From a bacterium (GTDB lineage: Bacteria > Patescibacteriota > Patescibacteriia > S139-126), in assembly GCA_030666865.1 (NCBI GenBank), contig DAOUWZ010000005.1, forward strand, positions 1 through 54,360: a stretch of 54,360 nucleotides of DNA. The letters are read 5' to 3'. This document shows positions 16,364 to 43,760 of this stretch, piece after piece (positions within the stretch are counted from its first letter, which is position 1; each line of letters starts with the position of its first letter). Under the pieces are notes generated by a model that was given only the letters and a program-made list of their open reading frames with translations, made no database searches and was not told the origin of the DNA. The translations under genes were made by a program, and so were the position numbers.

Positions 16364-16366
16364 AGA

Positions 16367-20360: not shown

Positions 20361-20747
20361 ATGGAAAATAAAAAAGAAAATATTAGCAAGAAAAATATTA
20401 TTACTTTATTAGTCGTTATCATTATTATCTTGATAAGTGGATTCTTTGTATATCCAGAATATTCAAGATATAGATTTCAAAAAGAAATAGAGCATCAACA
20501 AGCAAGACAGGAGGCTTCAGAAAAGAGCATGCTTATAACAGAAATAGATTTATTGCAGATGGATCTCGGTGAGTTTGAATATACATCTGAAAGACAAAAA
20601 CAAATGAGTTTAGAAGAATTGAGAAATGCTAAACAAGAACTTGAATGGAAAATGGAATTTAATACTCTCAAAAGAAAATGTGGTGATGATTGTCCTGAGA
20701 ACTTAACCTGGGGTAATTTTCTTTTAAGTAAGGTACTTGCAGATTAA
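20361..20747 (+). CDS. Hypothetical single-TM coiled-coil protein
   Basis: AT-rich-preceded ATG at 20361 (the upstream ORF extension overlaps the structured RNA); TM IITLLVVIIIILISGFFV. Confidence 0.65.
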   Translation: MENKKENISKKNIITLLVVIIIILISGFFVYPEYSRYRFQKEIEHQQARQEASEKSMLITEIDLLQMDLGEFEYTSERQKQMSLEELRNAKQELEWKMEFNTLKRKCGDDCPENLTWGNFLLSKVLAD

Positions 20748-20756
20748 TTTTAAGAT

Positions 20757-21350
20757 ATGTATAAAAGAATTCCTGATAAAAAACTTATTGGAGAAGAGTT
20801 TTTTAAAAATACTAAAGATAAACATTTTTCAATATTAGAATTTTGGCAGTATGGTTTTTCCAATCTAAATTCAAATGTACTCAGAGGTGCATTGGCTGAA
20901 TTTCTAGTTGAAAATGCTTTAAAAGATAAAAATGATATTTTCGTTCGCAATCCTTGGGGTGATTATGATGTTGAAACAAAAGATAATAAAAAAATTGAAG
21001 TGAAATGTAGTTCTTATATTCAAGATTGGGATCAAAATAAATTAAGCACAATACTTTTTTCAGGACTCAAAGCAAAAGAAATTTATTGGTCAGAAGCTGT
21101 GAAAAAGAAAAGTGATTTAAAAAAGAAAGATTATAAAGCAGATATTTATATTTTAGCCTTATTGGATCATCAAGAATCCGAAACCCTTGATATATTGGAT
21201 ATTGACCAATGGAGTTTTTATGTTTTAACAAAAGATAGAATAAAAGAAATAACCAAAGATGGTAAGTCTATATCATTATCTAAACTTAACAAAAACAATA
21301 TTAAGCCTTATCATTTTAATCAATTGGCTAGTATAGTAACTAATATTTGA
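20757..21350 (+). CDS. PD-(D/E)XK restriction-endonuclease-like protein
   Basis: RGALAEFLV...YDV...IEVK. Confidence 0.7.
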   Translation: MYKRIPDKKLIGEEFFKNTKDKHFSILEFWQYGFSNLNSNVLRGALAEFLVENALKDKNDIFVRNPWGDYDVETKDNKKIEVKCSSYIQDWDQNKLSTILFSGLKAKEIYWSEAVKKKSDLKKKDYKADIYILALLDHQESETLDILDIDQWSFYVLTKDRIKEITKDGKSISLSKLNKNNIKPYHFNQLASIVTNI

Positions 21351-21386
21351 TATGCCAGAGTTATATTTTAATAAAATGTCTAACAT

Positions 21387-21418
21387 AAGCCATAAATGAT
21401 TGATTTATGGCTTGTTTT
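21387..21418 (+). terminator. Intrinsic terminator-like hairpin
   Basis: AAGCCATAAAT/ATTTATGGCTT followed by GTTTT. Confidence 0.5.
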
Positions 21419-21468
21419 GTGGGAGAATAGAATTATTAGAATGTTAGTGTACAGGTAATAAAATAATT

Positions 21469-23994: not shown

Positions 23995-24005
23995 TAAAAT
24001 ATTTC

Positions 24006-26723: not shown

Positions 26724-26735
26724 TTATTATGAGCT

Positions 26736-27770
26736 ATGAACCAAAATCTTGCAGAAAAAATAGAAAATCTTTGTTTGTATGTTTGTAATGCAAAAAAGTT
26801 TGGCTACGAGCAGAAGTTAAAAAAGGCTACAGAACATGAGCTTTACGACGCTGCGATTATTTACGCATGGAGCATTTTCATGCTTTTCATTTTTGAGAAA
26901 GTTTGGCAACTACGAGAGATTGAAAGATGTGAAGACGGAGACAGTTTTCTCACTGATGGAATTTTTCTGCAGCTGATAAACAAAGGAAAGCCGAGCGACA
27001 AACCAGCAGACTACTTTGATGGTAGTTTATTTTCACTCAATAAGCTGCAGGAAAATAATCAAGGAGAGGATAAAATAATAGGTAAATTGAAAGACGTTTT
27101 CAGGGGTGTAGATCAACAGTTTTTTAAAGAGGCTCAACAGATACTACAAAAAAGACATACTTCCGCACATGTTAATTCAGTAAATTTGTCTATTGATGAA
27201 TTAAATTATGTACTCGGAAAACTTATTGGCATAGCACAGGAAATACAAAATGATCACGAAAGGAAAATGCCAAAAGTATTTGAGTATTTAGATACTGTAA
27301 ATGAGTGGCACTTATCGGAATTTGATATGGTAAAAGTCCATGAGTTATTTGACCAAGACCAAACAGACGATATTTGTAAATACAGAAGTGTAACAAGATT
27401 GGTAAAAATACAAGATTTTTCTAGTGCCTCCGTTGATGAGATTAAAGAGCGGGCTATAAAGTATTTTTTAAAATCGTATAGTTATCAATCCGCATATGAT
27501 AATGGTGTGGAAATGATACTGCCCATTTTGCAATTTCTAGATGAAGATGATATAAAGCAAATTCTTACTGGAGTTTTTGAGAATGTACGAAATCAAATTT
27601 TAGATGCACGAAAAATTGAAGATATTTTTTGGGAGCTTTATCAACTTTCATCAAATAGCTTCCCTGATTTGCAGAGCAATTGGGAAGAGTTTATAAATAA
27701 GTTAGAGGCTGAAGAATGCACAGGCAATTTCCCAAAATTAATACCAGAGATAAAAAAAACTGAAGAATAA
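26736..27770 (+). CDS. Hypothetical protein with N-terminal HEPN-like domain
   Basis: DAAIIYAWS helix and Rx4H motif (KRHTSAH). Confidence 0.55.
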   Translation: MNQNLAEKIENLCLYVCNAKKFGYEQKLKKATEHELYDAAIIYAWSIFMLFIFEKVWQLREIERCEDGDSFLTDGIFLQLINKGKPSDKPADYFDGSLFSLNKLQENNQGEDKIIGKLKDVFRGVDQQFFKEAQQILQKRHTSAHVNSVNLSIDELNYVLGKLIGIAQEIQNDHERKMPKVFEYLDTVNEWHLSEFDMVKVHELFDQDQTDDICKYRSVTRLVKIQDFSSASVDEIKERAIKYFLKSYSYQSAYDNGVEMILPILQFLDEDDIKQILTGVFENVRNQILDARKIEDIFWELYQLSSNSFPDLQSNWEEFINKLEAEECTGNFPKLIPEIKKTEE

Positions 27771-27771
27771 A

Positions 27772-28638
27772 ATGAAACTACAACAGAAAACAATTACAAA
27801 ATTTCGAGAATTGATTAACGAGGAAACAGAATATAGGAGCGGACCAGCGCTAGTGGCGTTTTTTAATGATCTTGGCTCCAGTGACTCATACGGACAAGGA
27901 TTCCCTTCAAGATGGGTGTACACAGAAGACAGGTTGAAGGCTTTCAACGGAACTTCAAAAATGAACGAATGTATAAAAAGAATCTTTGCACCGATAAATT
28001 TTGTTGGTGATTTTAAAACTTTAGATAAGCATATTACTGATTTTAATCAGTATCTTGCGTTTGACGGATACAAAATTACAAGAAAAGGTCAGGTTGTAGT
28101 AGTTGGCAAATGCTCTGAATCGGATTTTGATAACGAAGTTGATGACAGTGAATCTGAGAATGAATTTATCGCGAAGGAGTTTAAAAAAGTAGCACTTAAC
28201 AAATTATGTTTAGATTCTGCGGTCACAAATGTATTACAACAACGTTTGAATGAGATTGAAAAATGCCTTAGCAAAAAAGCGGCTCTATCAGTAGTGATTT
28301 TATGTGGGGGTACATTAGAGGGTATTCTGATTGGAATGGCAAGTAAATATTCAAAAGAATTTAATAAATCAAAATGTGCATGTAAGAAGAAGGGTAAAGT
28401 TTTGCCGTTTTCAGATTGGAACTTGTCAGGTCTTATCGATACTGCTAAAGATGTCGGGTTGTTAGGTGAAGATGTGAAAAAATATAGTCATGCATTGCGT
28501 GATTTTAGGAATTACATACATCCGTATCAACAAGTGGCAAGTAGTTTTAGTCCACATAATCATACTGCAAAAATTAGTTGGCAGGTGTTGCAAGCAGCTA
28601 TATATGAAATATTTGAATATGAAAACAATAAAGAATGA
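27772..28638 (+). CDS. AbiJ-like protein (AbiJ N-terminal domain + HEPN-like C-terminus)
   Basis: YRSGP.LV.FFN...SRW.YT..RL; LEG.L...LRDFRNYIHP. Confidence 0.6.
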   Translation: MKLQQKTITKFRELINEETEYRSGPALVAFFNDLGSSDSYGQGFPSRWVYTEDRLKAFNGTSKMNECIKRIFAPINFVGDFKTLDKHITDFNQYLAFDGYKITRKGQVVVVGKCSESDFDNEVDDSESENEFIAKEFKKVALNKLCLDSAVTNVLQQRLNEIEKCLSKKAALSVVILCGGTLEGILIGMASKYSKEFNKSKCACKKKGKVLPFSDWNLSGLIDTAKDVGLLGEDVKKYSHALRDFRNYIHPYQQVASSFSPHNHTAKISWQVLQAAIYEIFEYENNKE

Positions 28639-28713
28639 GGGGATAAATTTGCATGTACATTGGGCATATTGAGTAAACTCAATATTACTTACTTCAGTAA
28701 TTAATTTAAATTT

Positions 28714-29466
28714 ATGTCCCAATACTACAATCCAATCAGAACCAGAAACATCTATGATCCTAAATCAGAAGATATTTTTAAGCTATCTCGTAGCAAAATA
28801 GATTTATTTATAGAATGTCCAAAATGTTTCTATATTGACCGACGACTTGGAACTGGGAGACCACCTGGATTTCCTTTTAACTTAAATAGTGCTGTAGATA
28901 CACTACTTAAGAAAGAATTTGATATTCATCGCGCTAACGATACTCAGCATCCATTGATAGAGAAATACGGAGTAGATGCTAAACCAGTAGCACATGAAGA
29001 TTTAGATATCTGGCGAGAGAATTTTAAAGGTGTGCAGTTTTATCATAAAAAAACTAATTTTATTATCACTGGTGCTATTGATGATCTTTGGATTAACTCA
29101 AAAGACGAATACATAGTGGTAGATTATAAAGCAACTAGCAAGAATGCAAAGATTGAAGCACTAGATCAAGATTGGCAGATTGGTTATAAAAGACAGATGG
29201 AGATATATCAGTGGTTATTGAGACAAAATGGATATAAAGTTTCTAATACTGGATATTTTGTGTATTGTAATGGTGATACTGATAAAAAAGCTTTTGATGC
29301 CAAACTTGAATTTGATATTACTTTAATTTCATATACTGGTAATGATGCATGGATAGAAGATACTATCATCAAAGCACATAAATGTTTGCAATCAAATAAA
29401 ATCCCACAATCAGGGAATGATTGTGATTATTGTGCTTATGTGGAGGCGAGGGGTAAAGTGAATTAA
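28714..29466 (+). CDS. PD-(D/E)XK nuclease (RecB/Cas4-like, Cys cluster)
   Basis: LSRSKI..F.ECPKC, GAIDD, VDYK, QMEIY, CDYC. Confidence 0.85.
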   Translation: MSQYYNPIRTRNIYDPKSEDIFKLSRSKIDLFIECPKCFYIDRRLGTGRPPGFPFNLNSAVDTLLKKEFDIHRANDTQHPLIEKYGVDAKPVAHEDLDIWRENFKGVQFYHKKTNFIITGAIDDLWINSKDEYIVVDYKATSKNAKIEALDQDWQIGYKRQMEIYQWLLRQNGYKVSNTGYFVYCNGDTDKKAFDAKLEFDITLISYTGNDAWIEDTIIKAHKCLQSNKIPQSGNDCDYCAYVEARGKVN

Positions 29467-29475
29467 TATTTTTAT

Positions 29476-29988
29476 ATGTCAGAATTAGATTTAAGACATC
29501 CTTCTATACAAGGTTATCCAAAAGAAGAGATGGTGTTGTTAATAGATTTGTATAGATTGATTTCTATATTTGGATCTAGTGAGTATATTTCAACTTTTCG
29601 TAGTGATAGAGATGATATTTCGCATTATAGTATTAATGCAATATTTCGTAATTTTGAATATACTGAGATTTCAAGGTTACTAATTTCATTAGCAGCTCAA
29701 TTACGAAATATACTAGATAATAATTGTGATATAGATGAAAAACAAGAATTTATTGTTGGAGAAATTAAACATCAAAAGAAAGAAGAAAAAGAAGATTTAT
29801 TACTTAGAGATGCGTGTAATAAAATATTACATGCTGAAAATATTAATTTTGATTTAAGTGAAAATAATACTATATATAGTGGTTATTTAAATCCAATAAT
29901 ATATTTATATTCTAATAATTCTGAATATAATTGGAAGGCAAAATTAGATATAAAAAGTTTCACAAAGTGTATTTTTAAAAATATTTAG
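29476..29988 (+). CDS. Hypothetical protein (possible divergent HEPN, RDACNKILH)
   Basis: Co-oriented 170-aa ORF within the cargo array. Confidence 0.6.
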   Translation: MSELDLRHPSIQGYPKEEMVLLIDLYRLISIFGSSEYISTFRSDRDDISHYSINAIFRNFEYTEISRLLISLAAQLRNILDNNCDIDEKQEFIVGEIKHQKKEEKEDLLLRDACNKILHAENINFDLSENNTIYSGYLNPIIYLYSNNSEYNWKAKLDIKSFTKCIFKNI

Positions 29989-30033
29989 TGTTATTAGTTA
30001 AGTCGAAAATAAAGCATTCATTAGAATAGTATT

Positions 30034-30405
30034 ATGGTTAAAAAACAAAATGAACTTAAAAGTAAATTTACTAAATTGATCAAAAGTAATAATTTTAGTT
30101 TCGACGATTTATCACAAATATCGACAGAACAAGGAGTGTATATTATTTATAGTAATAGGAATAAAGTTTTACATGTAGGTAGAACTGTTAGAGCAAGAAA
30201 TGGATTAAAGCAGAGATTGACAGATCATAAACGAGGGCAATCTAGTTTTGTTAAAAAAGGGTTGAAAGGTGATAGAGATAGATTAAGAAATTGTCATTTT
30301 AAATATATAGTAGAAGATAATAATAGAATTAGAGCATTATTAGAATGCTATACAATTGGAGGGTTATACCCTGAACATATTGGCTTAGGAAAAAGAAAAA
30401 AATAG
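30034..30405 (+). CDS. GIY-YIG-like nuclease
   Basis: GVYIIY...VLHVGRT...LKQRLTDH...LLE. Confidence 0.7.
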   Translation: MVKKQNELKSKFTKLIKSNNFSFDDLSQISTEQGVYIIYSNRNKVLHVGRTVRARNGLKQRLTDHKRGQSSFVKKGLKGDRDRLRNCHFKYIVEDNNRIRALLECYTIGGLYPEHIGLGKRKK

Positions 30406-30570
30406 TTCTAGACCGAGGTTTGAATAAGACACCAAGACACCCCTTTTTATAGTGTCTCATTTGTCTCATTCACTCCGACCGAGAGGGGTTGTACTAGTCT
30501 ATGAATGAGTGCTAGAATACCTCTAAGGTTACCACACTACATTGGTACTAGACCGTGTGTGTGAGCCATG

Positions 30571-30603
30571 AAAAAATCAACATCTCACGATGTTGGTTTT
30601 TTT
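30571..30603 (+). terminator. Intrinsic terminator (probable original tRNA-Gln terminator)
   Basis: AAAAAATCAACATC-TCAC-GATGTTGGTTTTTTT directly after the GAGCCAT core. Confidence 0.7.
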
Positions 30604-30620
30604 ATAGTTCTGAAATAGAT

Positions 30621-30820
30621 AGGGAATCGAACGGGTACGAGAGAGGCAATCCCGCGTTAGCGGGAGTAGACGAGCGACAAATAATCCGAGCTGACGCAGG
30701 ATTATTTGGTACCCCGGGCAACGAAGCCCTGAAAGGGCAAGGCGAAATTCCCTGCCTGCTCCTCGAGTCTGAGCACGAGGCTCACCTTAGAGCGATGACC
30801 GGCAGGCAGGTCGTCCGACT
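30621..30820. other. GC-rich multi-hairpin element with tRNA T-arm-like ends, containing nested palindromic insertions
   Basis: AGGGAATCGAAC is the reverse complement of tRNA 15513-15524; closing ATTCCCTG at 30747; internal stems. Confidence 0.55.
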
Positions 30821-30840
30821 GTGAGGCTTTAATAAAAAGC

Positions 30841-30900: not shown

Positions 30901-31860
30901 TTACAAGAGAGTGGAGATAATTTCTCTAAATGACAAGCCTTTTTTAAATGCCTCTACGGCATTTTTTTTATAAAAAACATTAGCGATATCTTCCCAGTCA
31001 TTAAAAGAGAAGAAATTTTTAAGTGAACCATTCGTATTTTGGTTAGGGTTAAACCAACCAAAAGGTACGCCGGCAACTTCTGCCAATTTACCGTCTTTGA
31101 TCGGATCATCACCGAAATAGATCATCCTTTGGCGGCTTTCCATGAGGAATCTAACTAGTTGGAGTTGATTGGTCATTGCACCATGAATGACGGAAAACCA
31201 CATGAGGTGAATTAAATCAAATAAAGTAACAGATGGTTTAATTCGCATTGCTTGTTTTTTTGGATATGCTCGTCCTCTCATTTCATCATCAGTTAGAAGT
31301 ATTGGTGGACAAGGAAGCCCCCATACTTTGAAAGTCTCTTGAATAAACTTCTCATGGCCAGATGAAAGAATGGCTAACTGGATGTTTACTGAGTTATTAT
31401 TTATCTTTTTTATCATTTTCAGGAATTCCAGAATTCCTTTACAGGGACGAGGCCAAGTTTCTCTAATTTCTTTTGCTAGATATTCCAGCTTAGAGCGGAC
31501 TAACATTTCTGTGATAACACCATTTGGATTCCAAGAATTGGCTTGAGGCCATTCAAGTGGATGTCCTTTACCTTCAGGAACCAACCCATTAAGAAGTTCG
31601 TGGTTTTTTACAAAGAATTGCTTGGCTGCTTGGATTAAACTTTCTTTGTTTCCTTTCGAGAGAATTGCCTCAACCAGTTCTCCTGGAGCTCTATTTTCAA
31701 GTCGACCAATTTTGTTGAATACACTCAGTCCCGTATTTCCAAAGACTGATTTAACAGCATGTGTATATGCTTCATTGACGCCGATGCCATTAGGGCTCAG
31801 CTCGAAAGTATTTGCAACACATCCGTCAAAATCACAAATAACTAGATATTCTTGTATCAT
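30901..31860 (-). CDS. HAD-superfamily hydrolase
   Basis: Motif I DFDGCV, motif II LSSG, KP, motif IV YFGDD..KD. Confidence 0.85.
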   Translation of the reverse strand: MIQEYLVICDFDGCVANTFELSPNGIGVNEAYTHAVKSVFGNTGLSVFNKIGRLENRAPGELVEAILSKGNKESLIQAAKQFFVKNHELLNGLVPEGKGHPLEWPQANSWNPNGVITEMLVRSKLEYLAKEIRETWPRPCKGILEFLKMIKKINNNSVNIQLAILSSGHEKFIQETFKVWGLPCPPILLTDDEMRGRAYPKKQAMRIKPSVTLFDLIHLMWFSVIHGAMTNQLQLVRFLMESRQRMIYFGDDPIKDGKLAEVAGVPFGWFNPNQNTNGSLKNFFSFNDWEDIANVFYKKNAVEAFKKGLSFREIISTLL

Positions 31861-32092: not shown

Positions 32093-32623
32093 ATGGATCC
32101 AAACAATTGGTATGTAATTACAGGCGCTCCTTCAGCTGGTAAAACTACTTTGATTAAATTATTAGAGGAAAGGGGCTACGATGTTGTTCATGAAGTGGCT
32201 AGAGTTTATATCGATCAAGAAATAGAGAAAGGAAAAACTATTGATCACATACGTCGTGATGAATTTTTGTTTCAAAATATTGTATTAAAAATGAAAATCG
32301 AGATAGAAAATAATTTACCAAAGGGGAAAATTATTTTTTTTGACAGAGGTATTCCTGACACCGAGGCTTATTATAAATTATATGGAAAAGAAAATGATGA
32401 ATTTTTAAAAGAGGCTATCGATAATTGTTTATATAAAAAGATTTTTTTACTTGATTTTTTCAATATGCATAAGGATTATGCCAGAACGGAAAACAGCGAA
32501 AAACAAATAAAAATTCATGATTTGTTAGAAAAAAGTTATCTGAAAACAAATATTCCTATTGTTAAAGTGCCAAAAATGAAATCAAAAGAGGATAGATTAA
32601 ATTTTGTTTTGGATAATTTATAG
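32093..32623 (+). CDS. AAA_28 (NadR/Ttd14-like) P-loop nucleotide kinase/ATPase
   Basis: ITGAPSAGKTT, E.AR..I, FFDRGIPD, RTE. Confidence 0.85.
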   Translation: MDPNNWYVITGAPSAGKTTLIKLLEERGYDVVHEVARVYIDQEIEKGKTIDHIRRDEFLFQNIVLKMKIEIENNLPKGKIIFFDRGIPDTEAYYKLYGKENDEFLKEAIDNCLYKKIFLLDFFNMHKDYARTENSEKQIKIHDLLEKSYLKTNIPIVKVPKMKSKEDRLNFVLDNL

Positions 32624-34296: not shown

Positions 34297-34905
34297 ATGG
34301 ATAAATTATCAAATTCAAAAGTCAAAATAGAATCAGAATTAAAAGAAATTAAAAATGAAATATTAAATTGCCAGAAGTGTTCATTGTATAAAACCAGAAA
34401 ATACCCGGTTATTGGCCAGGGCAATCATCAGCCGAGAATTATATTGATTGCTGAAGCGCCTGGTAGTTGTGAAGATAAAACTGGGAGACCATTTTGTGGT
34501 CAGTCTGGTAAAATATTAGATGAATTATTATATGCGGTTAATATTGCCAGAGAGGATATATACATTACAAATATTTTAAAATGCCGGCCGCCAGGCAATC
34601 GCGATCCTTTAGCAGATGAAATTAATTCATGTGGTGGTTATTTGTTAAGGCAGATAAGCATTTTAAAGCCGCAAGTGATATGTTCTTTAGGTAATTTCGC
34701 AACCAAATATATTATGGAAAAGTTTGATTTATTAGCTGAATTTAAAGGAATTAGTAAAATACATGGACAAGAGTTTTCTGTTAAAAATGCTGATTATGGT
34801 CAATTTAAAATTATTCCCTTTTACCACCCAGCTGTAGCATCTTATCGTATAAATATGAAAGAATTATTATTAGCAGATTTTAAAATTTTGCAAAAATTTA
34901 TTTGA
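34297..34905 (+). CDS. Uracil-DNA glycosylase, family 4 (Fe-S)
   Basis: CQKC, EAPG, GRPF.G.SG, NILKCRPP.NRDP, YHPA. Confidence 0.93.
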   Translation: MDKLSNSKVKIESELKEIKNEILNCQKCSLYKTRKYPVIGQGNHQPRIILIAEAPGSCEDKTGRPFCGQSGKILDELLYAVNIAREDIYITNILKCRPPGNRDPLADEINSCGGYLLRQISILKPQVICSLGNFATKYIMEKFDLLAEFKGISKIHGQEFSVKNADYGQFKIIPFYHPAVASYRINMKELLLADFKILQKFI

Positions 34906-34948
34906 TAATTTTTTACTAAAGTAATGATAAATAAAGTTTTATAAAAAA

Positions 34949-36334
34949 ATGGGAATAAATCAAAAACTAATAAATCAATTATTTAATTTATCAGATTTGC
35001 CTTTGACGCAGCTTTCTCATACTTTTGCCCAAGCCTCTATCTGGTATGAAGAGGGTATGAAAGATCAGATCGCTACTTTTGATTTGGTAGTTAGAGATAT
35101 GCCCAAGCATCGGAATTATTTAGTGGCTGGGGGCTTGGAAGAAGTAATAGGTTATTTACTTAAGTATAAATATTCAGATGAGGATATAAAATACTTATTA
35201 GATGGAGGGTTGATTACTAAAAATTTTGTAAAATATTTAAAGCAATTAAGATTTACTGGAGATGTTTATGCCATGCCAGAAGGGACAATACTTTTTCCCG
35301 GTGAACCAATTATTAGAATAACTGCGCCATTGATTCAGGCTGCTTTGATAGAGATATTTTTATTAACAGTCGGAGTTTCAAATATTATTTTTTTGAGTAA
35401 AGCTGCTAGATTACGATCAGCTTCACCGAATAATGTTCCATCATTGGGTATGCAGCGAGCTTATTCTTTTGAATCTGGCATGAAAGCACTTAGAAGCGGA
35501 TATATTTGTGGTTCCAAAATGAATGTGTGGTCTAGTTTTGTAAAAAAATTTGGATTGAAACAATCTGATTACATTATTAATGGACAGCATTTATTTATTA
35601 AATCGTTTAATAATGAATTGACGGCTTTTCGGAAAATGGCTAAATATTTTCCTGATAATACATCAGTAATGATTGATACTTATGATTTTGATCAGGGTTT
35701 AGCTAATGCTATTACTGTCGCTAAGGAATTAAAACAACAAGGATATAATTTGGAATATGTCACTATTGATTCTGGAAATTTGGAAAAACTTAGTAAACAG
35801 GTCAGGAAAGAGCTTGATCAGAATGGATTGAAAAAAGTAAAGATTATTACTGCTACAAATTTGGATGAATATAAAGTTAAAAAATTGGTACAAAACCGGG
35901 CACCAATAGATATATTTGTGGTAGCAACCGAGTATGTCACTATGGCTGATTCATCAAAACTAGAAGTAGTCTACAAAATGGCAGAATTAAAAGATGGCAA
36001 AAATATTCAATATACTGCCAAACTATCACCTGGTAAGGAAAGTTATCCTGGCCGGAAACAAGTATTTAGAAAATATAGAAACGGCAAAATAGTTGAAGAT
36101 ATTATTGGTTTGGAAAATGAAAAATTAGGCGCGCCTTTACTAAAGCAATATATGTCTAAGGGACGAATTATAAGAAAAATTCCAGATATTAAAGAAATTA
36201 GAAAATATTTTGATAAACAATTTGCGACTATTCCGCAGAGGTTATTATCAATAGATAAAGATATAGAGTTTAAAGTGAAAGTAAGTAGGGAGATTAAAAA
36301 AATATTCAACCAAATAAAGAAAGAACATAAATAA
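34949..36334 (+). CDS. PncB/NAPRT-family protein, divergent paralog 2
   Basis: AGGLEE, FTGDVYAMPEGT, DTYD, DSG, NLDE, VYKM, SYPGRKQVFR. Confidence 0.87.
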   Translation: MGINQKLINQLFNLSDLPLTQLSHTFAQASIWYEEGMKDQIATFDLVVRDMPKHRNYLVAGGLEEVIGYLLKYKYSDEDIKYLLDGGLITKNFVKYLKQLRFTGDVYAMPEGTILFPGEPIIRITAPLIQAALIEIFLLTVGVSNIIFLSKAARLRSASPNNVPSLGMQRAYSFESGMKALRSGYICGSKMNVWSSFVKKFGLKQSDYIINGQHLFIKSFNNELTAFRKMAKYFPDNTSVMIDTYDFDQGLANAITVAKELKQQGYNLEYVTIDSGNLEKLSKQVRKELDQNGLKKVKIITATNLDEYKVKKLVQNRAPIDIFVVATEYVTMADSSKLEVVYKMAELKDGKNIQYTAKLSPGKESYPGRKQVFRKYRNGKIVEDIIGLENEKLGAPLLKQYMSKGRIIRKIPDIKEIRKYFDKQFATIPQRLLSIDKDIEFKVKVSREIKKIFNQIKKEHK

Positions 36335-36398
36335 TATTTTTATTTGATTTTACTTTACAGCATGTTTTTATGACAAATAAAGATAATAAAATAAATAA

Positions 36399-37457
36399 AT
36401 GAATAATTTTTTAGAACTTAATTTAGAAAATATTCCAGATTACTATCGACGAATTTTGAGTAAATATTTATTCAAGGCTGATTTATTAAAAGTAGATGAA
36501 GTGCATAATGGTTTTAATAATTATTTATTTAGATTAATTGTAAATTTTAAAGGTAAGCATAAAGTTTATTATTTAAAACAAGCACAGAAATATAATAAAA
36601 GAAGTTATTTACAAGGAAAGCCTATTTATCTAAGTCCAACTAGAATTATTGGAGAAGTAGATCTAATATCTAGATTGGAAAAAATATGGCCTATTGGAAC
36701 TGTGCCTAAAATTATTTATTTTGATAAAAAAAATTATATTTTTTTAATGAATGATATTTCTGGAAATGCTAAATTTTTACCTAAAGAATTTGATAGAAAT
36801 AAAGTGCATCCAGAAGCTGGCAGTACTTTAGGTAGGTTATTAGCGAAACTCCATTCTTCTACTTGGAAAAAGAGTGTTTATCCCAAATCAAAAATTTCAT
36901 ATCAAAATAAATTGAAAAAAGAATTATTTGAAAAAAATTGGTCTAAAGGTATAAAAAAGGTGGTTGATTCAAAATTAGTTAATAGTTTATTTAAACCTAA
37001 TAAGTATATTTCCACTTCATTGATTTGGGGTGATCCAATATATAGAAATATTTTTGTAAAACCTAATGGAAAAGTGAGTTTAGTTGATTTTGATCACACT
37101 TTAAAATTCAATCCCTTATTAGATTCAGGTATTTTACTTTCACATTGGACATGGATGTGGTTGAAGCCAAATAAAAAATTAAAAAAAGATTGTGAAAAAT
37201 TTATAAAAAATTATATCAGTAATTATTATAAAGCATGGTTTAAGCATCCTAATTTTGATAGAAAAATTAAAGACGAATTTGATTATTGGCTACCTTGTTG
37301 GATTGGTTGGTATATGCTATCAAGAACAGAAGGAAAATCTGGTTCTTATTTTGAAAAATATCCAACTTGGGAAAAAAAGATTAAGCAATTAGGAATTGAT
37401 TTGATTGAAGGAAATTTATCAGAGCATAGTAGAAAAATAGTAGATTTATTAAAATAA
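36399..37457 (+). CDS. APH/choline-kinase-fold phosphotransferase, 5-methylthioribose-kinase-like
   Basis: GFNNYLFR, YLKQA, LAKLH, IWGD...NI, VDFD. Confidence 0.7.
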   Translation: MNNFLELNLENIPDYYRRILSKYLFKADLLKVDEVHNGFNNYLFRLIVNFKGKHKVYYLKQAQKYNKRSYLQGKPIYLSPTRIIGEVDLISRLEKIWPIGTVPKIIYFDKKNYIFLMNDISGNAKFLPKEFDRNKVHPEAGSTLGRLLAKLHSSTWKKSVYPKSKISYQNKLKKELFEKNWSKGIKKVVDSKLVNSLFKPNKYISTSLIWGDPIYRNIFVKPNGKVSLVDFDHTLKFNPLLDSGILLSHWTWMWLKPNKKLKKDCEKFIKNYISNYYKAWFKHPNFDRKIKDEFDYWLPCWIGWYMLSRTEGKSGSYFEKYPTWEKKIKQLGIDLIEGNLSEHSRKIVDLLK

Positions 37458-37479
37458 GATAATTATTAATAAAAAATAT

Positions 37480-38151
37480 ATGAAAAAATTATATAAGCCT
37501 AATCATGAGGATTACACATTTATTCAAGGGGATAGAGATCCTGATGAAAATATGCGTAATATAGCTTCACAATTAGGTGAGGAATTATCCAAGAGAGATG
37601 TCAAAGTAAATGTAGGTTCTTATGGTGGTTTTGTTAAAGTATTGCAGGAGTCAGGTGTTGAAATTTATCCTCATGTAATGGTGTGGGAAGGTAAAGAATT
37701 ACAATTTAACCAGGATGAAGTAGAATCAATCAATTGTATAGAAATAGCTGAGCAGATGTTGCAGAATGAAAAAATAGATGAAGAAGAGAAAAAAAATAGA
37801 ATCAAAGATGTTTCATGGGCTTTACGAATGGGGTTGTTTTTATCAAATTCTAGCTCTTTTGCATTTTTTCCTGGCACTAGAGGAACGAGATCTCATTTAT
37901 TATCTGCTTTAGCATTCAATTTAACATCTGACAAGCCTAAACCTGTGGCTTTAATAGGATGGGATGAAGATGATTTGAATTTGCAAAATCATTCAGAATA
38001 TCCAGAACTTAAAGACAGAGAAGATGCTTGGCTTAAAAGTTTTGCTTCAGAGTTGAGAGAAGAATTTCCGTCATGGCTAAAAAATTTTGATAAAGAAGAT
38101 ATTGATGGAATAGTTGAATTTCTTACAAATAAAACAGAAAATAATGATTAA
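37480..38151 (+). CDS. Divergent SLOG/LOG-fold protein
   Basis: QLG.EL, VGSYGG, FPGTRGT, KPVALIGW. Confidence 0.55.
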   Translation: MKKLYKPNHEDYTFIQGDRDPDENMRNIASQLGEELSKRDVKVNVGSYGGFVKVLQESGVEIYPHVMVWEGKELQFNQDEVESINCIEIAEQMLQNEKIDEEEKKNRIKDVSWALRMGLFLSNSSSFAFFPGTRGTRSHLLSALAFNLTSDKPKPVALIGWDEDDLNLQNHSEYPELKDREDAWLKSFASELREEFPSWLKNFDKEDIDGIVEFLTNKTENND

Positions 38152-38159
38152 TATATTAT

Positions 38160-39542
38160 ATGATAAATGATTTAGTCACCAAAGAAGATTTGATTTTATT
38201 TACTTCCGGGACCAGGTTTACTTTGAGAAGCGTTTACTATGAAGAAGGTTTTGCCGACACAATAGCAAGTTTTGATTTATTTGTTAGAGAATTGCCAGAC
38301 AAAAGAAACTATTTGGTATTTGCTGGATTGGAACATATTTTGGATTTTTTATTAAATTTAAAATTTACTGACCGGCAACTTAAGTGGTTGAAAAAAACAT
38401 ATGGCTTTTCTGATGAAGTAATGAAGTATTATAAAAAATTTAAATTTACTGGTGATGTTTATGCTATGCCTGAGGGTAGTATATTTTTTGCAAATGAGCC
38501 GGTGATTAGAATAGTTGCGCCGATTATTGAAGCGCAAATGGTAGAGATTTATTTGACCAATACAATTTTTTTACAAACAATTTTAGCATCAAAAATTTCC
38601 CGGTTTGTCTGCGCAGCCAAGAATAAAAAATCAATATTTGGATTTAATCGGAGTTATGGTCTGGATACGGCGATGAAATTGGATCGGGTAGGGAAGATTG
38701 TTGGGTCTAGTCAATCAGTTGTGCCGATTAATAGTTTTAGAAATCCCGGGCTCGCTACTTTTTCAAATCATATGTTTCATCATTTTGTTACAGCATTTGA
38801 TAGTGAAATTGAGGCGTTTGAAGCTCATCTAAAACGTTATCCTGATAAAGCGACTGTTTTGGTGGATACTTATGACACTATTAAGGGAGTTAAAAATTTT
38901 ATTAAGGTGGCGGTCCGAGTAAAGGAGAAAACCGGCAAACAGCCTAAACATATCATGCTTGATAGCGGTGATATATATTCATTAAGCGTTCGCGCCAGGA
39001 AAATGCTTGATGATGCTGGACTTGATAGGGTTGGCATTATGGGAGTCAGTAATTTGGATGAGTATAAAGTAGATAAGATGGTCAAAAAAAATGCGCCGAT
39101 TGATCTTTATAGCGGTACCACTAATATTTTGACGCCGATTGACGCGCCAGTATTGGAGTTGGTTTATAAGTTGAATGAAATTAGAAAAGACGGCAGGGTA
39201 TATCCGAAGATGAAATTATCCAGTCAGAAAATATCTTTGCCTGGTAGAAAACAGGTATTTAGACAAGAAAAAAATGGTAGATATATAGGAGATGTTATTG
39301 GGCTTAGTTCAGAGAAAATTAGCGGCCGGAAAATGCTGATTAAATATATTAGCCAAGGAAAATTAGCAAGGAAGTTGCCTGACTTAGCATCAATAAAGAA
39401 ATATTATGAGAAAGAAAAAAATAAATTTAAACAGTCTTTATTAGAAGTAAGTAAAAAAGTGGAATACAAGGTGTCAATTAGTAAAGATTTGAAAAAGTTA
39501 ATGAAAAAAACCAGAAAAGAAATTGAACAGAAGAATTATTAG
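38160..39542 (+). CDS. PncB/NAPRT-family protein, divergent paralog 3
   Basis: FAGLE, FTGDVYAMPEG, VDTYDT, LDSGD, SNLDE, VYKL, LPGRKQVFR. Confidence 0.9.
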   Translation: MINDLVTKEDLILFTSGTRFTLRSVYYEEGFADTIASFDLFVRELPDKRNYLVFAGLEHILDFLLNLKFTDRQLKWLKKTYGFSDEVMKYYKKFKFTGDVYAMPEGSIFFANEPVIRIVAPIIEAQMVEIYLTNTIFLQTILASKISRFVCAAKNKKSIFGFNRSYGLDTAMKLDRVGKIVGSSQSVVPINSFRNPGLATFSNHMFHHFVTAFDSEIEAFEAHLKRYPDKATVLVDTYDTIKGVKNFIKVAVRVKEKTGKQPKHIMLDSGDIYSLSVRARKMLDDAGLDRVGIMGVSNLDEYKVDKMVKKNAPIDLYSGTTNILTPIDAPVLELVYKLNEIRKDGRVYPKMKLSSQKISLPGRKQVFRQEKNGRYIGDVIGLSSEKISGRKMLIKYISQGKLARKLPDLASIKKYYEKEKNKFKQSLLEVSKKVEYKVSISKDLKKLMKKTRKEIEQKNY

Positions 39543-39825
39543 TAGATTATTCGCACCACTATGTCACTTTGTACAGGGATAACATACCCCACTCTCTTGA
39601 TATGTACATTGATAGAGGGGATGTGCTAATAATGTTTTTATTTGTAGAAATGTTAAAAGTTAAATTTTTTTTGCCCGCCGTATTGGAGAGAGAGGGGAAT
39701 TTCCGCTCGAGGCGGATCAGCCTTGGCTGAAAAAGGTCTACTTACTGGCAGGTAGGGGGTGGGTAGTATTAATGTTTAGAAAGGGTTTATAAATTGGGAT
39801 GAAAAAAGAGCTATCAAAGCTCTTT

Positions 39826-40383
39826 TTAGATTGAAAAATCTATTTCATTAATTTCCTCGGCCGTGTTTATATGATAAATATTTATTTTCATATAGGGAGG
39901 TATAATACCAAGAGAAAATTCTTTTATCAATCCGACCCAATTAAAAAAACTGTTATTAAAAAAAACTATTTTTTTTAATTTTTTTTCTGGCTGAATTTGA
40001 TACTGAACATTTCTTATTTGCATTACAGTTTGTAATTCAAATAATGTTCCTTCGTTACCTGGCATAAAAATATAAGCATCAGCGGCCATCAAGCGTTTGA
40101 CGCGCCAGAGAAATTGTTGTTCTAAGTTATTTCCCCGAGCTATTATTTTTTTTGTTAAAAATTTATTAGCTTTTAATTTAACGGGAAGAGGAAATAATAC
40201 CCCAGTAATATTAATGGTTTTATTATTTGCATTATTAGCGCCTTCAGAGATAGCCGTCATAATTCCTGAATACCCTCCAGAAATAATTGAAAGATTTTTT
40301 CTGGCTAAAGCCAGACCTAAATTATAGGCTGACTGATAAAAATTATGAGTAGTTTTACTACCACCAAATACTGCGATTTCCAT
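39826..40383 (-). CDS. LOG-family (SLOG) nucleotide phosphoribohydrolase-like protein
   Basis: AVFGGS, SGGYSGIM.A, R...L, MPGNEGTLFEL. Confidence 0.85.
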   Translation of the reverse strand: MEIAVFGGSKTTHNFYQSAYNLGLALARKNLSIISGGYSGIMTAISEGANNANNKTINITGVLFPLPVKLKANKFLTKKIIARGNNLEQQFLWRVKRLMAADAYIFMPGNEGTLFELQTVMQIRNVQYQIQPEKKLKKIVFFNNSFFNWVGLIKEFSLGIIPPYMKINIYHINTAEEINEIDFSI

Positions 40384-40510: not shown

Positions 40511-40613
40511 GATCTAAAGATGTTATACATAAAAATGATATTGTATTTTATAGTAAAATTTACTATACTCTAAACTAGAGTTGAATAAACTCTTTATTTA
40601 TTTAAATATAAAT

Positions 40614-42236
40614 ATGAATGAATTAAATTCACAAGATCAGAAGGTTTATACGCTTTTTTCACCAATCGTGAAACTTGTTAAAGTATTTAAAGATACTGAA
40701 AATAAGGTATTGCCACCAGAAGATTCACGCATAAAATTAAATACAGTCGTTTCCAAAATGTCCTTATTTTATGAAAAAATAAGGAATGCTGTTGATTATG
40801 AAGAAGAACATTTATTAAGAGAAAGGGCAATTCGGAGGAATTTGAAACGAACCATGACTTTGCCAAATAGATCAGGAAAAATTATTGCTAAACCTTTGGT
40901 GCTTGATATGGTTAGGTCTGGTTATTTGCCCAATAATGAGTTATCAGAAGATATTGTTACTAAGGGTGAGATAATTATTGATAAGTATTTGGGGTTAATT
41001 GATCGAATAGGAAAATACAAAGAAAAGAAAGAGAAAGTAGAACTTTTTGAATGGCTGGTAAATATTTTATCTATAGAACTTGATGATTTATTTGAAACAA
41101 AATCAAAAGAGGATTCTTTGGTAGAGTGCATGTATCAAGTTGTCAGCAAGGATATTGTAGTTACAGATTCAAAATATAGTGAATCCGATATTAAAATCCA
41201 ATTATATATAGCAATTTTAAGATCATTGATTAAGGCTGATATTGCCAGAGTGGGATATTATCTATGGCAATTGTATGTTCCAAATTGGCGTGAAGCAGAG
41301 GAAATTGATTTGACAGATGTTGCTCAGAAGATCGGCAGCATATACCAAAAAATTCAAATGCAGATAAAGCATCCTTTAGGGGATCTTTATATGAGGATTT
41401 TGAGAAAGTATAATGTTATTTTTTTAATAATTCAAGATATTATCAAAGATGAGCCGGCTGCTGCTATTGATGTGTGGAAAAATCCCGCATTATTGGAAGA
41501 GAAGATTCGCAATGCCACTAAGAAACGTTATAAAATTTCTAAAGTTAAATTGAGAAGAAGCATAGTCAGAAGTATTATTTATCTTTTGATTACTAAAATG
41601 GTTTTGGCCGTCTTGTTGGAATTACCATTAGACTGGTTAATAGAAAGAGAGTTGAATATTATTAGTATCGTTATTAATGTTTTATTTCCACCGGCTTTAA
41701 TGTTTTTGATCGGATTGTTTATTCGTGTTCCTAGTATGAAAAATACCGACAAGATTGTTCAAGGTATTAAAGAAATTTCATATCAATTTGATGAAAGACA
41801 AGTTTTACATAAGATTAAGAAGCAGTTAAAGCGCAGTGTATTCATGACCAGAGCTTTTAGAGTTGTTTATACAATTATTTTTACATTTACATTTGGTATG
41901 ATTTTTTATGGATTGCATAATTTGAGTTTCAATATTGCTAGCATGGTAATATTTATATTTTTTCTATCTCTGGTTTCATTTTTTAGTATTCGCATATCTC
42001 AGTCAGCTCGGGAACTCCATATTATAGAAAAAAAGGCTAATGTGTTTACGTTTTTTAAGGATTTTTTTTCATTGCCAATTTTACATTTTGGCCGCTGGCT
42101 TTCTAATAATTTAAATAAAATTAATTTTTTTGTAATTTTGTTTGATTTTGTGATTGAAGCGCCGTTTAAAGTTTTGGTTGATATTATTGATGAATGGACC
42201 ACTTATGTTGAAGAAAAAAAAGAAGAATTGTATTAG
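40614..42236 (+). CDS. Conserved hypothetical membrane protein
   Basis: YEKIRNAVDYEEEHLLR..AI.R; C-terminal TMs; DFVIEAPFK; ATG at 40614 preferred over TTG at 40581. Confidence 0.75.
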   Translation: MNELNSQDQKVYTLFSPIVKLVKVFKDTENKVLPPEDSRIKLNTVVSKMSLFYEKIRNAVDYEEEHLLRERAIRRNLKRTMTLPNRSGKIIAKPLVLDMVRSGYLPNNELSEDIVTKGEIIIDKYLGLIDRIGKYKEKKEKVELFEWLVNILSIELDDLFETKSKEDSLVECMYQVVSKDIVVTDSKYSESDIKIQLYIAILRSLIKADIARVGYYLWQLYVPNWREAEEIDLTDVAQKIGSIYQKIQMQIKHPLGDLYMRILRKYNVIFLIIQDIIKDEPAAAIDVWKNPALLEEKIRNATKKRYKISKVKLRRSIVRSIIYLLITKMVLAVLLELPLDWLIERELNIISIVINVLFPPALMFLIGLFIRVPSMKNTDKIVQGIKEISYQFDERQVLHKIKKQLKRSVFMTRAFRVVYTIIFTFTFGMIFYGLHNLSFNIASMVIFIFFLSLVSFFSIRISQSARELHIIEKKANVFTFFKDFFSLPILHFGRWLSNNLNKINFFVILFDFVIEAPFKVLVDIIDEWTTYVEEKKEELY

Positions 42237-42365: not shown

Positions 42366-43760
42366 ATGGATAAAGATAGGAGAAAAAAAATTGATAATAA
42401 TAAATCCAAAAAAACATTTTGGGGAATTTTGTGTTTATTAGCTGGAATGTTTATTTTTTTATATCCAAAGAGGAAAAGAATAAAAAAGATAGCCCTAAAT
42501 GAAAAAGATAAGTGTGTGAGTGCTATAGAAAAAGAGTATGGAGTATTAAAACATGGAGTCAAAAAATTTCCCCACAGGGTTTTAATGACATTGAAAGATG
42601 TTTTTGTACCTCATGAGGGCAATAATCATAAACCAAAAGCATTGCATCCAAAGTCGTTGAAAGCATATGTTATTTTGTTAGTTTTGATAAAAATATTTGT
42701 AACAGGTTTTATATTCTTTACATATCCAAATCCAGCTAGGCTTTCAGAAAAGATCGCTAATGAAGTTTTTTCATTAACCAATCAGTCAAGGCAATCAGAG
42801 GGTGTAGATATAGTTACTTGGAATGATTCATTAACTAGAGCGGCTCAGAATAAAGCTCAAGATATGATAAATAATAATTATTTTTCTCATGTAAGTCCAG
42901 ATGGCACTCAGCCGTGGCAATGGATCAATAAAGGAGAATATAGTTATGTTTATATGGGTGAAAATTTAGCGATGGATTTCAGTTCAGCTGAGATAGCGCA
43001 TTCAGCATTTAAAAAATCTCCCACTCATTGGAAAAATATTATGAACAGTAAATACAGTGATATGGGGATTGGCGTTGCTGTTGGGGAAATTGATAACAGA
43101 CAAACGATTGTTTTGGTTGAATTTTTTGGTACTGCTAAGGCGCCGGCTCCACAATTAGTCAAAGCAGCTGAAGCAGCAGAAACTGAAAAGCAAGATATTG
43201 TACCTATTCAGGAAGAACAGCCAAAACAAGAAATTGAAGAGATTCCAGTGGTTAAGGATGTTGTTAAGTCAGAAGAAAATAAGTCAGAATTAGATGATAT
43301 TAAAGAAGATATAATCGAACCGTCTGTTATTGGTGAAATTTATGTTGAAGAGGATGTTGTTGATCAAGTTGCAGAAGATCAAAAAATTATTGCCAATCAA
43401 GATAAAGTGGCAGCTGAATCTGATACAAAGATAGCTTATGAACCAATTGCTCAAAAATTGGTTCCAGAAATAACAGTACCAAAAGTATTTTCTGCTTCCC
43501 AGCAATTAAAAGTGGTACCGATAGAGCAAAGAAATATTAGTAAAGGTATGGTTGATTATGTGATATTGTATGGTAGATATATAATGCTTTTGTTCTTATT
43601 GGTTTTGATGGCTATTTTATTGGTTAATATTTTGATAAAGCCTCATATTCAGCATAGCGGTCTGATATTGCAGACAGTAGCCTTAATAATTGTTGTTTCG
43701 GCTTTTTTATTTGTCAGATTTCATTTTATAGAAGATTTAAGCGCTGTAATCATATATTAA
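42366..43760 (+). CDS. CAP (SCP) domain membrane protein
   Basis: TNQSR, L..AAQ.KA.DM...YFSH, GENLA, SPTH..NI, GIGV. Confidence 0.9.
   Translation: MDKDRRKKIDNNKSKKTFWGILCLLAGMFIFLYPKRKRIKKIALNEKDKCVSAIEKEYGVLKHGVKKFPHRVLMTLKDVFVPHEGNNHKPKALHPKSLKAYVILLVLIKIFVTGFIFFTYPNPARLSEKIANEVFSLTNQSRQSEGVDIVTWNDSLTRAAQNKAQDMINNNYFSHVSPDGTQPWQWINKGEYSYVYMGENLAMDFSSAEIAHSAFKKSPTHWKNIMNSKYSDMGIGVAVGEIDNRQTIVLVEFFGTAKAPAPQLVKAAEAAETEKQDIVPIQEEQPKQEIEEIPVVKDVVKSEENKSELDDIKEDIIEPSVIGEIYVEEDVVDQVAEDQKIIANQDKVAAESDTKIAYEPIAQKLVPEITVPKVFSASQQLKVVPIEQRNISKGMVDYVILYGRYIMLLFLLVLMAILLVNILIKPHIQHSGLILQTVALIIVVSAFLFVRFHFIEDLSAVIIY

Follow-up and report, generated by a model that had tools for sequence, protein, structure and literature searches.

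Nicotinate phosphoribosyltransferase (NAPRT, also called PncB), a type II phosphoribosyltransferase (PRTase), is the described enzyme closest to the three NAPRT-like genes analysed here, which are referred to as PncB1, PncB2 and PncB3. They lie in a window of 54,360 nucleotides (contig DAOUWZ010000005.1 of assembly GCA_030666865.1; our contig C35) from a member of the Patescibacteria whose genome, G000, measures 1.09 Mb and is 99.6% complete; G000 holds exactly three such copies, all inside the window. Judged by the names of homologues and related contigs, the organism stands near Kuenenbacteria and Komeilibacteria. PncB2 and PncB3 are clustered with a small-molecule kinase and with two proteins related to LOG phosphoribohydrolases (P0311 and P0312), and two further groups of described enzymes are therefore relevant: the LOG enzymes, in which the GGxGTxxE motif is catalytic, and methylthioribose kinase (MtnK), which phosphorylates the C1-OH of 5-substituted ribose. 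How Patescibacteria and DPANN archaea, which lack de novo synthesis of nucleotides and cofactors, obtain and balance their nucleotides and nicotinamide adenine dinucleotide (NAD) remains an open question.

For NAPRT, the report of the human structure and its docking model assign roles to the following active-site residues (E. faecalis/human numbering, used throughout): Y17/Y21 stacks on the pyridine ring; R262/R318 contacts the nicotinate carboxylate, the ribose of phosphoribosyl pyrophosphate (PRPP) and the adenine of ATP; R163/R171, conserved throughout the three type II PRTase families, forms a salt bridge with the 5-phosphate; pyrophosphate and the gamma-phosphate of ATP are bound by K333/K396; and the autophosphorylated H205/H213, together with S206/S214, completes the active-site set (PMC4442680). 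A second precedent is the phage system NARP1, in which a gene for the Prs-like protein Adps lies upstream of a type II PRTase homologue, Namat, an arrangement that also occurs in bacteria; Namat keeps the catalytic core of Nampt and gains an adenine clamp outside it (PMC12774641). A literature search found nothing that links nicotinate phosphoribosyltransferase to Patescibacteria or the candidate phyla radiation (CPR), and no description of LOG genes paired with NAPRT-like genes or with an MtnK-like kinase.

Three remodelled clades within the NAPRT family

The three window genes fall in a large Patescibacteria/DPANN branch within the NAPRT (type II PRTase) family that has not been described before. 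All three proteins match the Pfam domains NAPRTase_N and NAPRTase_C and pass the cut-offs of NCBIfam TIGR01513 and NF009131 (320.6 bits for PncB1 with TIGR01513), and E. faecalis NAPRT (2f7f) is matched at E=5e-56. The catalytic model PF04095 gave no match at E<=0.01 in PncB1, PncB2 or PncB3. The same division runs through their homologues: for one window protein (P0002), the best 54 homologues lack PF04095 and 63 of the next 65, which are canonical and 40-46% identical, carry it, while for the other two (P0001 and P0003) all 120 of the 120 matches listed in each case are without it. Where sources are named, the homologues without PF04095 come from Patescibacteria lineages, apart from one Woesearchaeota and one Nanoarchaeota record. 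Homologues bear the source name 'nicotinate phosphoribosyltransferase', and PGAP-type models would label the window proteins likewise.

Residue conservation was counted over an alignment of 307 homologues, made up of 59 canonical sequences with the N-terminus present and 248 non-canonical cluster representatives. In the canonical group, Y17, R163, R164, H205, R262, K333 and the GVGT loop are kept in 59/59 sequences and S206 in 58/59. In the non-canonical group, H205, R164 and K333 are each present in 248/248 and the Thr of GVGT in 238/248, whereas Y17 remains in only 12, S206 in 8, R262 in 4 and R163 in none of the 248; the Thr of the GVGT loop is followed by a Glu in 215/248. Some 50 other positions are invariant in both groups alike. 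The positions that switch between the groups gather in the pocket; they lie in the N-terminal helix motif, in the RR and His loops, in the GVGT loop and at the residue that precedes DSGD. The branch thus retains the fold, the autophosphorylated His, the Lys for pyrophosphate and ATP gamma-phosphate, one of the two Arg residues of the RR pair and the DTYD, DSGD and NLDE acidic motifs, while the residues predicted to serve in pyridine stacking, carboxylate binding and the 5-phosphate salt bridge are replaced in three conserved, clade-specific ways.

The window contains one member of each clade. For positions Y17/R163/S206/R262, the signature is Q/V/A/V in PncB1, H/Q/L/T in PncB2 and T-R/F-N/H/M in PncB3; that is, the stacking Tyr is replaced by Q, H and T, respectively, and R262 by V, T and M. 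Clade A (PncB1) has the motifs [DE]xxQIF, GxxxRAH, AYHA and [IV]V[VA]TE; clade B (PncB2) has QxSHTF, GMQRAH, GQH[LF]F and VATEY; and clade C (PncB3) has TSG[ST]RF, GFNRSY, FH[YH] and YAGxTE. In clade C an aromatic residue (F/Y/W) occupies the T162 position in 49/54 sequences, with Asn in place of R163, Tyr or His in place of S206 and Gln in place of R262, which suggests a pocket that may suit a neutral, hydrogen-bonding heteroaromatic base held by stacking and hydrogen bonds. Because identical substitutions are conserved across clades of 43-172 homologues, the remodelling is not the product of chance decay. By analogy with the NAPRT of PMC4442680, the proteins presumably form dimers with composite active sites.

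These counts bear out the proposal of the first-pass annotation, which was made from the DNA letters alone, that the window carries an expanded paralog family with remodelled active sites. Its three full-length PncB-type genes (460-463 aa) were recovered, and the motifs that it quoted can be read in the proteins: DTYD, (D/N)SG(D/N), NLDE and the His (AYHAY, GQHLF, MFHHF) on the conserved side, and, on the altered side, PSPVR, LGMQR and FGFNR for FGxRR and IVVT, VVAT and SGTT for GVGT. Of the replacements that it proposed for D-L-Y, SGT in PncB3 holds; 'DLD' and 'PLT' are shifted by a few residues, and the alignment places LDQ (PncB1) and LSH (PncB2) there instead.

In a FastTree phylogeny (LG+gamma, 330 sequences), the non-canonical proteins form a single clade (support 0.993-0.997), within which clade C (56 sequences) has support 1.0 and clade B (43 sequences, support 0.96) is nested among clade A lineages. 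The window paralogs are 38-47% identical to one another and closer to orthologues from other genomes: PncB1 is 55-59% identical to those of G544, G192, G151, G029 and others, PncB2 61-63% to those of G592, G544 and locus L056, and PncB3 64-69% to its own. Since each paralog is nearer to these orthologues (55-69%) than to its neighbours in the same genome, the duplications are old. Selection was estimated as Nei-Gojobori dN/dS (nonsynonymous over synonymous rates); two congeneric clade A orthologue pairs of G192 and G151, which were unsaturated, gave 0.078 and 0.108, and two further pairs were saturated. The corresponding ratios were 0.115-0.152 for the kinase and 0.30 for the LOG-like gene. 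The NAPRT-like branch is under purifying selection, and the relaxed selection that the first-pass annotation had named as evidence against its proposal is not seen.

NAPRT-like genes are sporadic, occurring in 10/400 other genomes of a phylum-wide sample, in 32/400 genomes (8%) of a class sample and in 0/5 genomes of the same family. Several genomes have two to four copies, four of them in tandem in G709 (C13:15521-21773). G000 combines clades A, B and C; G544 has A, A and B; G592 has A and B; G029 has A and C; G151 and G192 each have A and A; and G314 has A, A and A. Single copies are all of clade A, except in the incomplete genome G141 (clade C). In complete genomes, clades B and C are seen only alongside clade A, and clade A copies stand alone in at least 6 genomes, which makes an obligate heteromer unlikely. 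A scan of viral contigs with the NAPRT-like alignment returned 19 pattern matches and no relative, and a scan of genome contigs for loci related to P0002 alone found none.

Gene neighbourhoods and pathway context

The neighbours of the NAPRT-like copies were surveyed in two samples. The first comprised 28 loci with 32 copies from GTDB genomes and genome contigs, with Pfam applied to two genes on either side; LOG/SLOG genes were found at 7/28 loci, Prs or Prs-like genes at 3/28, phosphoenolpyruvate (PEP)-utilizers swivel-domain proteins at 3/28 and type I PRTases at 2/28. The second was a metagenome scan with the clade C alignment, which yielded 78 loci; copies were classed by their active-site signature, and loci sharing proteins at least 95% identical were merged, leaving 29 non-canonical loci (27 with a neighbouring open reading frame, ORF) and 33 canonical ones (32 with neighbours). 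Within two genes of the non-canonical copies, LOG/SLOG was present at 13/27 loci, Prs at 5/27 and either at 15/27, compared with 0/32 canonical loci in every neighbour category, and more than one copy was found at 6/29 non-canonical versus 0/33 canonical loci. The link to LOG/SLOG genes that had first been noted in this window thus extends beyond G000, whereas uracil-DNA glycosylase (UDG), which had been listed with them, does not recur (0/28 loci of the first sample and none in the metagenome-scan loci).

Several gene orders recur. SLOG, Prs and a clade C NAPRT-like gene follow one another in L063 and L064, Prs directly precedes an NAPRT-like gene in L065 and L066, and a further order is Prs, clade C, SLOG, clade A. 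The longest arrays, in L056 (CAZNIO010000013.1, 3115-12770) and L073, consist of Prs, SLOG and five NAPRT-like genes in the order A, B, another ORF (197 aa in L056), C, A, A. That 197-aa ORF of L056 was considered as a P0311 homologue and rejected (hhalign probability 0.7%); the records of L056 and L058 are titled 'Gammaproteobacteria', yet their genes are Patescibacteria-like. Immediately upstream of clade C genes, orthologues of P0312 occur in L063, L064, L069 and L077; in L068 one lies downstream and convergent, as in the window. P0312 itself scores 50.6 bits with Pfam LDcluster4 (cut-off 26.3) and retains the motifs GGYSGIM and PGNEGTLFE with the signature Glu, and the SLOG neighbours in general keep GGxxGxM and GGxGTxxE, the Glu being present in 23/24.

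The kinase reaches TIGR01767 at 1.7e-10 with 40.5 bits, against a cut-off of 275, and its family is tiny: out of 1.84 billion entries, 156 representatives match at E<=1e-3 and 22 at E<=1e-30. Over 25 sequences the catalytic residues K60, E86, D212, N217 and D230 are invariant or nearly so, and the best PDB matches of the family profile are methylthioribose kinase 2olc (2.6e-21) and PsiK (1.7e-18). Strong orthologues occur in 10/400 class genomes, and a P0311 homologue lies within two genes of the kinase, usually divergent, at 8/10 loci; a ninth locus (L034) has an LDcluster4 SLOG gene instead. P0311 scores 19 bits with Pfam Lysine_decarbox (cut-off 27), and its AlphaFold model (pLDDT 83) finds the LOG structures 5its, 1ydh and 5wq3 as top Foldseek matches (probability 1.00, TM 0.5-0.6). 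Its motif, GTRGTRSH (GREGTxAH in the consensus of the family), carries a His in place of the Glu of LOGs. An ORF at L036:10780-11382 was rejected as a P0311 homologue.

All seven kinase loci scanned with Pfam (7/7) contain one to five divergent type I PRTase paralogs resembling orotate phosphoribosyltransferase (OPRT), with the DD...TG PRPP loop intact; in relatives, two to five type I PRTase paralogs flank the kinase/P0311 pair where G000 has NAPRT-like genes. Kinase loci also hold tandem Rph-like and swivel-His proteins, a Prs in L036 and, in L042, a PfkB kinase. In G000, G034, G544 and G592 the kinase has NAPRT-like genes within 10 kb, and these genes occur anywhere in the genome in 6/10 strong kinase-positive genomes, four of the six belonging to one genus, compared with 26/390 other class genomes. 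The kinase and the P0311-type protein make up a separate conserved pair, and only some genomes bring this pair together with NAPRT-like genes, which refines the single cluster first proposed.

Three features of these loci are recorded in their own right. The OPRT-like proteins (about 210-270 aa) occur in arrays of two to five paralogs (L039:3130-8429, L029:5776-7184, L035:6823-8234, L034:1110-2584, L037 and L042), share a conserved Trp-rich C-terminal extension and all score below the pyrE cut-offs. The tandem proteins of 450-570 aa that combine Rph-like and PEP-utilizers swivel-His parts without an ATP-grasp domain (L029:1272-5775, L039:4430-6142, L024, L019 and L111, and in G000 on contig C9, L051:9800-11353) are common beside the kinase/P0311 pair and the NAPRT-like genes in Patescibacteria and have DPANN look-alikes. 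Among kinase homologues, P0330 and P0344 are fused to histidine phosphatase (His_Phos_1) and alpha/beta-hydrolase domains, and a separate alpha/beta hydrolase adjoins the kinase in L037.

The PRPP context was examined in G000 and in the phylum sample. G000 encodes Prs and Apt on contig C17, as well as MTAP and a ComF-like protein; Hpt, a PyrE-like protein and Upp were not found in this genome. Prs is present in 8/10 NAPRT-positive genomes compared with 118/390 others, the Prs-positive total of 126 including the unpublished genome G193. The relatives G001 and G003-G005 (same family) and G006 (same order) are without NAPRT-like genes, and their only PF00156 match is ComF-like; they thus lack Prs and Apt.

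The NAD context was examined by searching for NadD and NadE in 17 genomes, 16 with non-canonical or semi-canonical copies and one, G275, with a canonical copy. In the holder genomes NadD was found in 0/16 and NadE over the cut-off in 1/16 (G288). G000 yielded no PncA, no NadE (its NAD_synthase-like matches are GuaA and MnmA only) and no match to NadD, NadM or NadR, its sole cytidylyltransferase-like domain being a generic one fused to TruB; the absence of pncA, nadD and nadE first noted for the window therefore applies genome-wide. By contrast, G275, which has the only clearly canonical NAPRT of the 400-genome phylum sample (511 bits), has pncB adjacent to nadE and nadD in one operon (L030, C1:452193-455772). 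Because holder genomes lack NadD and, in 15 of 16, NadE, the branch cannot feed the Preiss-Handler route, and, given the natural control of G275 and the loss of the residues that bind nicotinate, the annotated function, formation of nicotinate mononucleotide (NaMN), is very unlikely. It is thus supported that the window paralogs are not Preiss-Handler enzymes. Metabolic reconstructions that credit holders with NAD salvage are probably wrong at the NAPRT step, since the branch cannot bind nicotinate in the known way and the genomes lack NadD/NadE.

Two side observations belong here. The TruB of G000 (393 aa; C15:35723-36904, L004:1435-2616) has an N-terminal cytidylyl/adenylyltransferase-like domain, the only CTP_transf_like domain in the genome, which could be the missing adenylyltransferase for flavin mononucleotide or nicotinamide mononucleotide. 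Locus L022 (G385:C7:249359-252325) contains a semi-canonical NAPRT-like gene that keeps RR, R262 and GVGT and is without the Tyr and Ser; the genes flanking it are an LDcluster4 SLOG gene and the genome's only, sub-cut-off, Prs-like gene, and G385 is without NadD and NadE.

The coordinates and order of the window genes, re-found by ORF calling and family scans, agree with those first reported and are collected in the table.

Table. NAPRT-like genes of the window and the genes clustered with them
Feature	Position	Strand	Description
PncB1, NAPRT-like	7836-9227	+	463 aa; clade A; downstream of murJ and lepA
UDG family 4	34297-34905	+	ORF call and family scan
PncB2, NAPRT-like	34949-36334	+	461 aa; clade B; NAPRTase_N/NAPRTase_C
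APH/MtnK-like small-molecule kinase	36399-37457	+	352 aa; Pfam APH weak
P0311, divergent LOG-fold protein	37480-38151	+	223 aa; Lysine_decarbox sub-cut-off
PncB3, NAPRT-like	38160-39542	+	460 aa; clade C; starts 8 nt after P0311
P0312, SLOG/LOG-family (LDcluster4)	39826-40383	-	185 aa; convergent on PncB3

The GC content of the cluster is 0.31, compared with 0.33 for the genome, and gives no foreign-island signal. Promoter and terminator scans in this AT-rich DNA returned 52 occurrences against 52.1 expected. Two genes upstream of the cluster encode a small AAA_28 kinase of the NadR type (32093-32623) and a HAD-like protein that faintly matches YjjG nucleotidase (30901-31860), and neither recurs in related loci; the AAA_28 kinase and an SfLAP membrane protein were rejected as system components because they are absent from related loci. 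A mobile/defence island at 15163-30824 contains two GIY-YIG genes, an Mrr-type nuclease bearing a Top1 zinc ribbon, a large serine recombinase (16367-17668, minus strand), a ParB-N6/N4 methylase, a PD-(D/E)XK nuclease, a type I restriction-modification (R-M) HsdR (21469-23994) and a fused HsdM-HsdS (24006-26723). Near the window end are a 551-aa family-less protein with a TTG start (40581-42236), a CAP-domain protein (42366-43760) and a CYTH-domain protein (53648-54163).

Candidate functions of the branch

We give about an even chance to the reading that the window paralogs are ATP-coupled type II PRTases with acceptors other than nicotinate, acting with LOG and Prs in base swapping or ribose-phosphate recycling; the interpretation offered by the first-pass annotation is to that extent partly supported. 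In such a scheme, a LOG/SLOG phosphoribohydrolase would split a nucleotide into base and ribose-5-phosphate, Prs would convert the latter to PRPP, and the PRTase would join PRPP to another base to give a nucleotide, closing a cycle of base swapping or ribose-phosphate recycling in organisms without de novo nucleotide synthesis. The NAPRT-like enzymes would perform ATP-coupled ribosyl transfer, with PRPP or an activated ribose closely related to it as donor, each paralog might take a different neutral heteroaromatic base, and the phospho-His coupling to ATP would allow scarce bases to be scavenged. We infer this cycle, in which LOG cleaves and PRTase rebuilds, as one that fits the orders SLOG-Prs-NAPRT-like and Prs-SLOG-NAPRT-like (x5). 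In G000, the NAPRT-like module is fused with the second pair, kinase and P0311, which may release a ribose derivative and phosphorylate it at C1.

More tentatively, the type II PRTase fold may have radiated in CPR and DPANN into ATP-driven salvage of non-pyridine bases (purines, pyrimidines or modified bases) that forms a base-swapping cycle with LOG and Prs, a possibility to which we attach distinctly less than even weight. To our knowledge, the substrates described for this fold are all pyridines (quinolinate, nicotinate and nicotinamide), and if the acceptors are non-pyridine bases, theirs would be the first such specificity for it. If so, genome-reduced symbionts could rebalance scavenged nucleotides without de novo synthesis. 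The SLOG-Prs-NAPRT-like order offers a directly testable three-step pathway.

Several observations weigh against the favoured reading of ATP-coupled transfer to acceptors other than nicotinate together with LOG and Prs. The Prs of G000 lies on another contig than the cluster; G310, which is 99% complete, and G141 hold an NAPRT-like copy and no Prs at E<=1e-20; and 12/27 non-canonical metagenome loci have neither LOG nor Prs as a neighbour. Filling of gaps in salvage does not discriminate, as Hpt is present in 0/16 holders versus 3/15 Prs-positive comparators and Upp in 0/16 versus 1/15. The neighbour counts of the metagenome sample, including the 0/32 for canonical loci, were annotated by BLAST against references from non-canonical loci and may under-detect LOG near canonical copies, and related contigs and kin genomes in the counts are not independent. 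With the 5-phosphate Arg and the Gly-rich GVG loop lost and a new Glu gained, the donor may not be plain PRPP; because these donor residues are lost and an MtnK-type kinase is adjacent, donors activated at C1 of a 5-substituted ribose, including NARP1-like ADP-ribose, are also conceivable. Finally, the conserved residues are mainly those linked to ATP and phospho-His, which a non-transferase role would fit equally well.

Such a role, which we consider unlikely, would be that of an ATPase or phosphotransferase working through phospho-His, or that of a regulatory or pseudo-enzyme subunit (perhaps in heteromers of the paralogs), within a phosphoryl relay that includes the kinase and the swivel-His proteins. 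The docking model links the invariant H205, K333 and R164 to ATP and pyrophosphate (PMC4442680), base and 5-phosphate recognition is lost, Rph-like and swivel proteins without ATP-grasp adjoin NAPRT-like genes in L019, L024, L028, L029, L068, L074 and L111, and in complete genomes clades B and C were found only in the company of clade A. However, DTYD, DSGD and NLDE stay invariant, as do many barrel residues that the canonical enzymes have too, the clade-specific pocket residues are conserved as if they bound a ligand, clade A stands alone in the genomes counted above, and the adjacency of Prs together with the SLOG-Prs-NAPRT order points to PRPP chemistry.

We regard as improbable a cellular analogue of NARP1, in which the kinase or a Prs-like protein would activate ADP-ribose at C1'' and the NAPRT-like enzyme would join it to nicotinamide or nicotinate, giving NAD or an NAD-like product and bypassing NadD/NadE. 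Some SLOG domains bind ligands derived from ADP-ribose, the G000 kinase is of the MtnK lineage, with its C1-OH chemistry, and NAD is required in spite of the missing NadD and NadE. NARP1 pairs a Prs-like protein with a type II PRTase (PMC12774641), and here Prs lies directly upstream of an NAPRT-like gene in 5/27 loci. Namat nevertheless retains its core, whereas in the window branch the pyridine-holding residues of the core are lost; a single base would hardly account for three to five divergent pockets per genome; the Prs in the G592 cluster has the score of an ordinary Prs (281 bits); and the scan of viral contigs found no phage copies.

Very little probability remains for ordinary nicotinate phosphoribosyltransferases making NaMN for NAD salvage, as annotated: the family models TIGR01513 and NF009131, the homologue names and the 2f7f match favour it, and the organism needs NAD (for IMPDH and NAD-dependent epimerases), but the carboxylate Arg is lost in 244/248, the 5-phosphate Arg in 248/248 and the stacking Tyr in 236/248, PF04095 and PncA are absent, and NadD and NadE are as rare as stated, whereas the single canonical gene belongs to a pncB-nadE-nadD operon. 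Likewise highly improbable is a conflict or defence system centred on nucleotides and carried by a mobile island: SLOG and PRTase domains are reportedly recurrent in predicted conflict systems (work of Burroughs and Aravind), the distribution is sporadic, the R-M and recombinase island lies 4 kb upstream and neighbours include weak PRTase-CE matches, but PADLOC identified 0/6 cluster proteins (only AAA_28 gave a weak VakA match), GC is like that of the genome, PncB1 stands in a housekeeping context (murJ, lepA) syntenic with G314, and there are no viral copies and no sensor, effector or toxin domains.

Comparison with described systems

Compared with MtnK, 5-deoxyribose kinase and PsiK, the window kinase resembles the best PDB profile matches and keeps the catalytic Lys, Glu, Asp, Asn and Asp. 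It differs from MtnK in lying far below the TIGR01767 cut-off, in the very small size of its family and in its conserved partners, which are LOG-like proteins and PRTases and not methionine-salvage genes. MTAP, which G000 possesses, yields methylthioribose-1-phosphate directly.

With the LOG, PpnN and type I-II LOG phosphoribohydrolases, P0312 and the SLOG neighbours share both GGxxGxM and GGxGTxxE, and the P0311 model superposes on LOG structures; the P0311 family differs in having His for the motif Glu and in falling under the Pfam cut-offs.

NARP1 (PMC12774641) resembles these loci in placing a Prs-family gene directly upstream of an altered type II PRTase homologue and in involving no NadD/NadE. 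The window branch differs in that it is NAPRT and not NAMPT, in that the core pocket itself is rebuilt, and in having several paralogs and a LOG/SLOG partner; moreover, the G000 cluster is without Prs, which adjoins the NAPRT-like genes only in the 5/27 related loci.

The nearest comparison is with canonical PncB/NAPRT (E. faecalis 2F7F, human 4YUB), whose three-part architecture and length match the window proteins and whose phospho-His, K333/K396, R164, DTYD, DSGD, NLDE and PGRKQVFR are kept in the window branch. Unlike the canonical enzymes, the branch replaces Y17/Y21, R163/R171, S206/S214, R262/R318 and the GVG loop clade by clade, has no PF04095 match or NadD/NadE context, and forms arrays of two to five paralogs with LOG/SLOG and Prs. 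The branch is thus best filed as a functional variant inside the type II PRTase family and not as NAPRT in the enzymatic sense.

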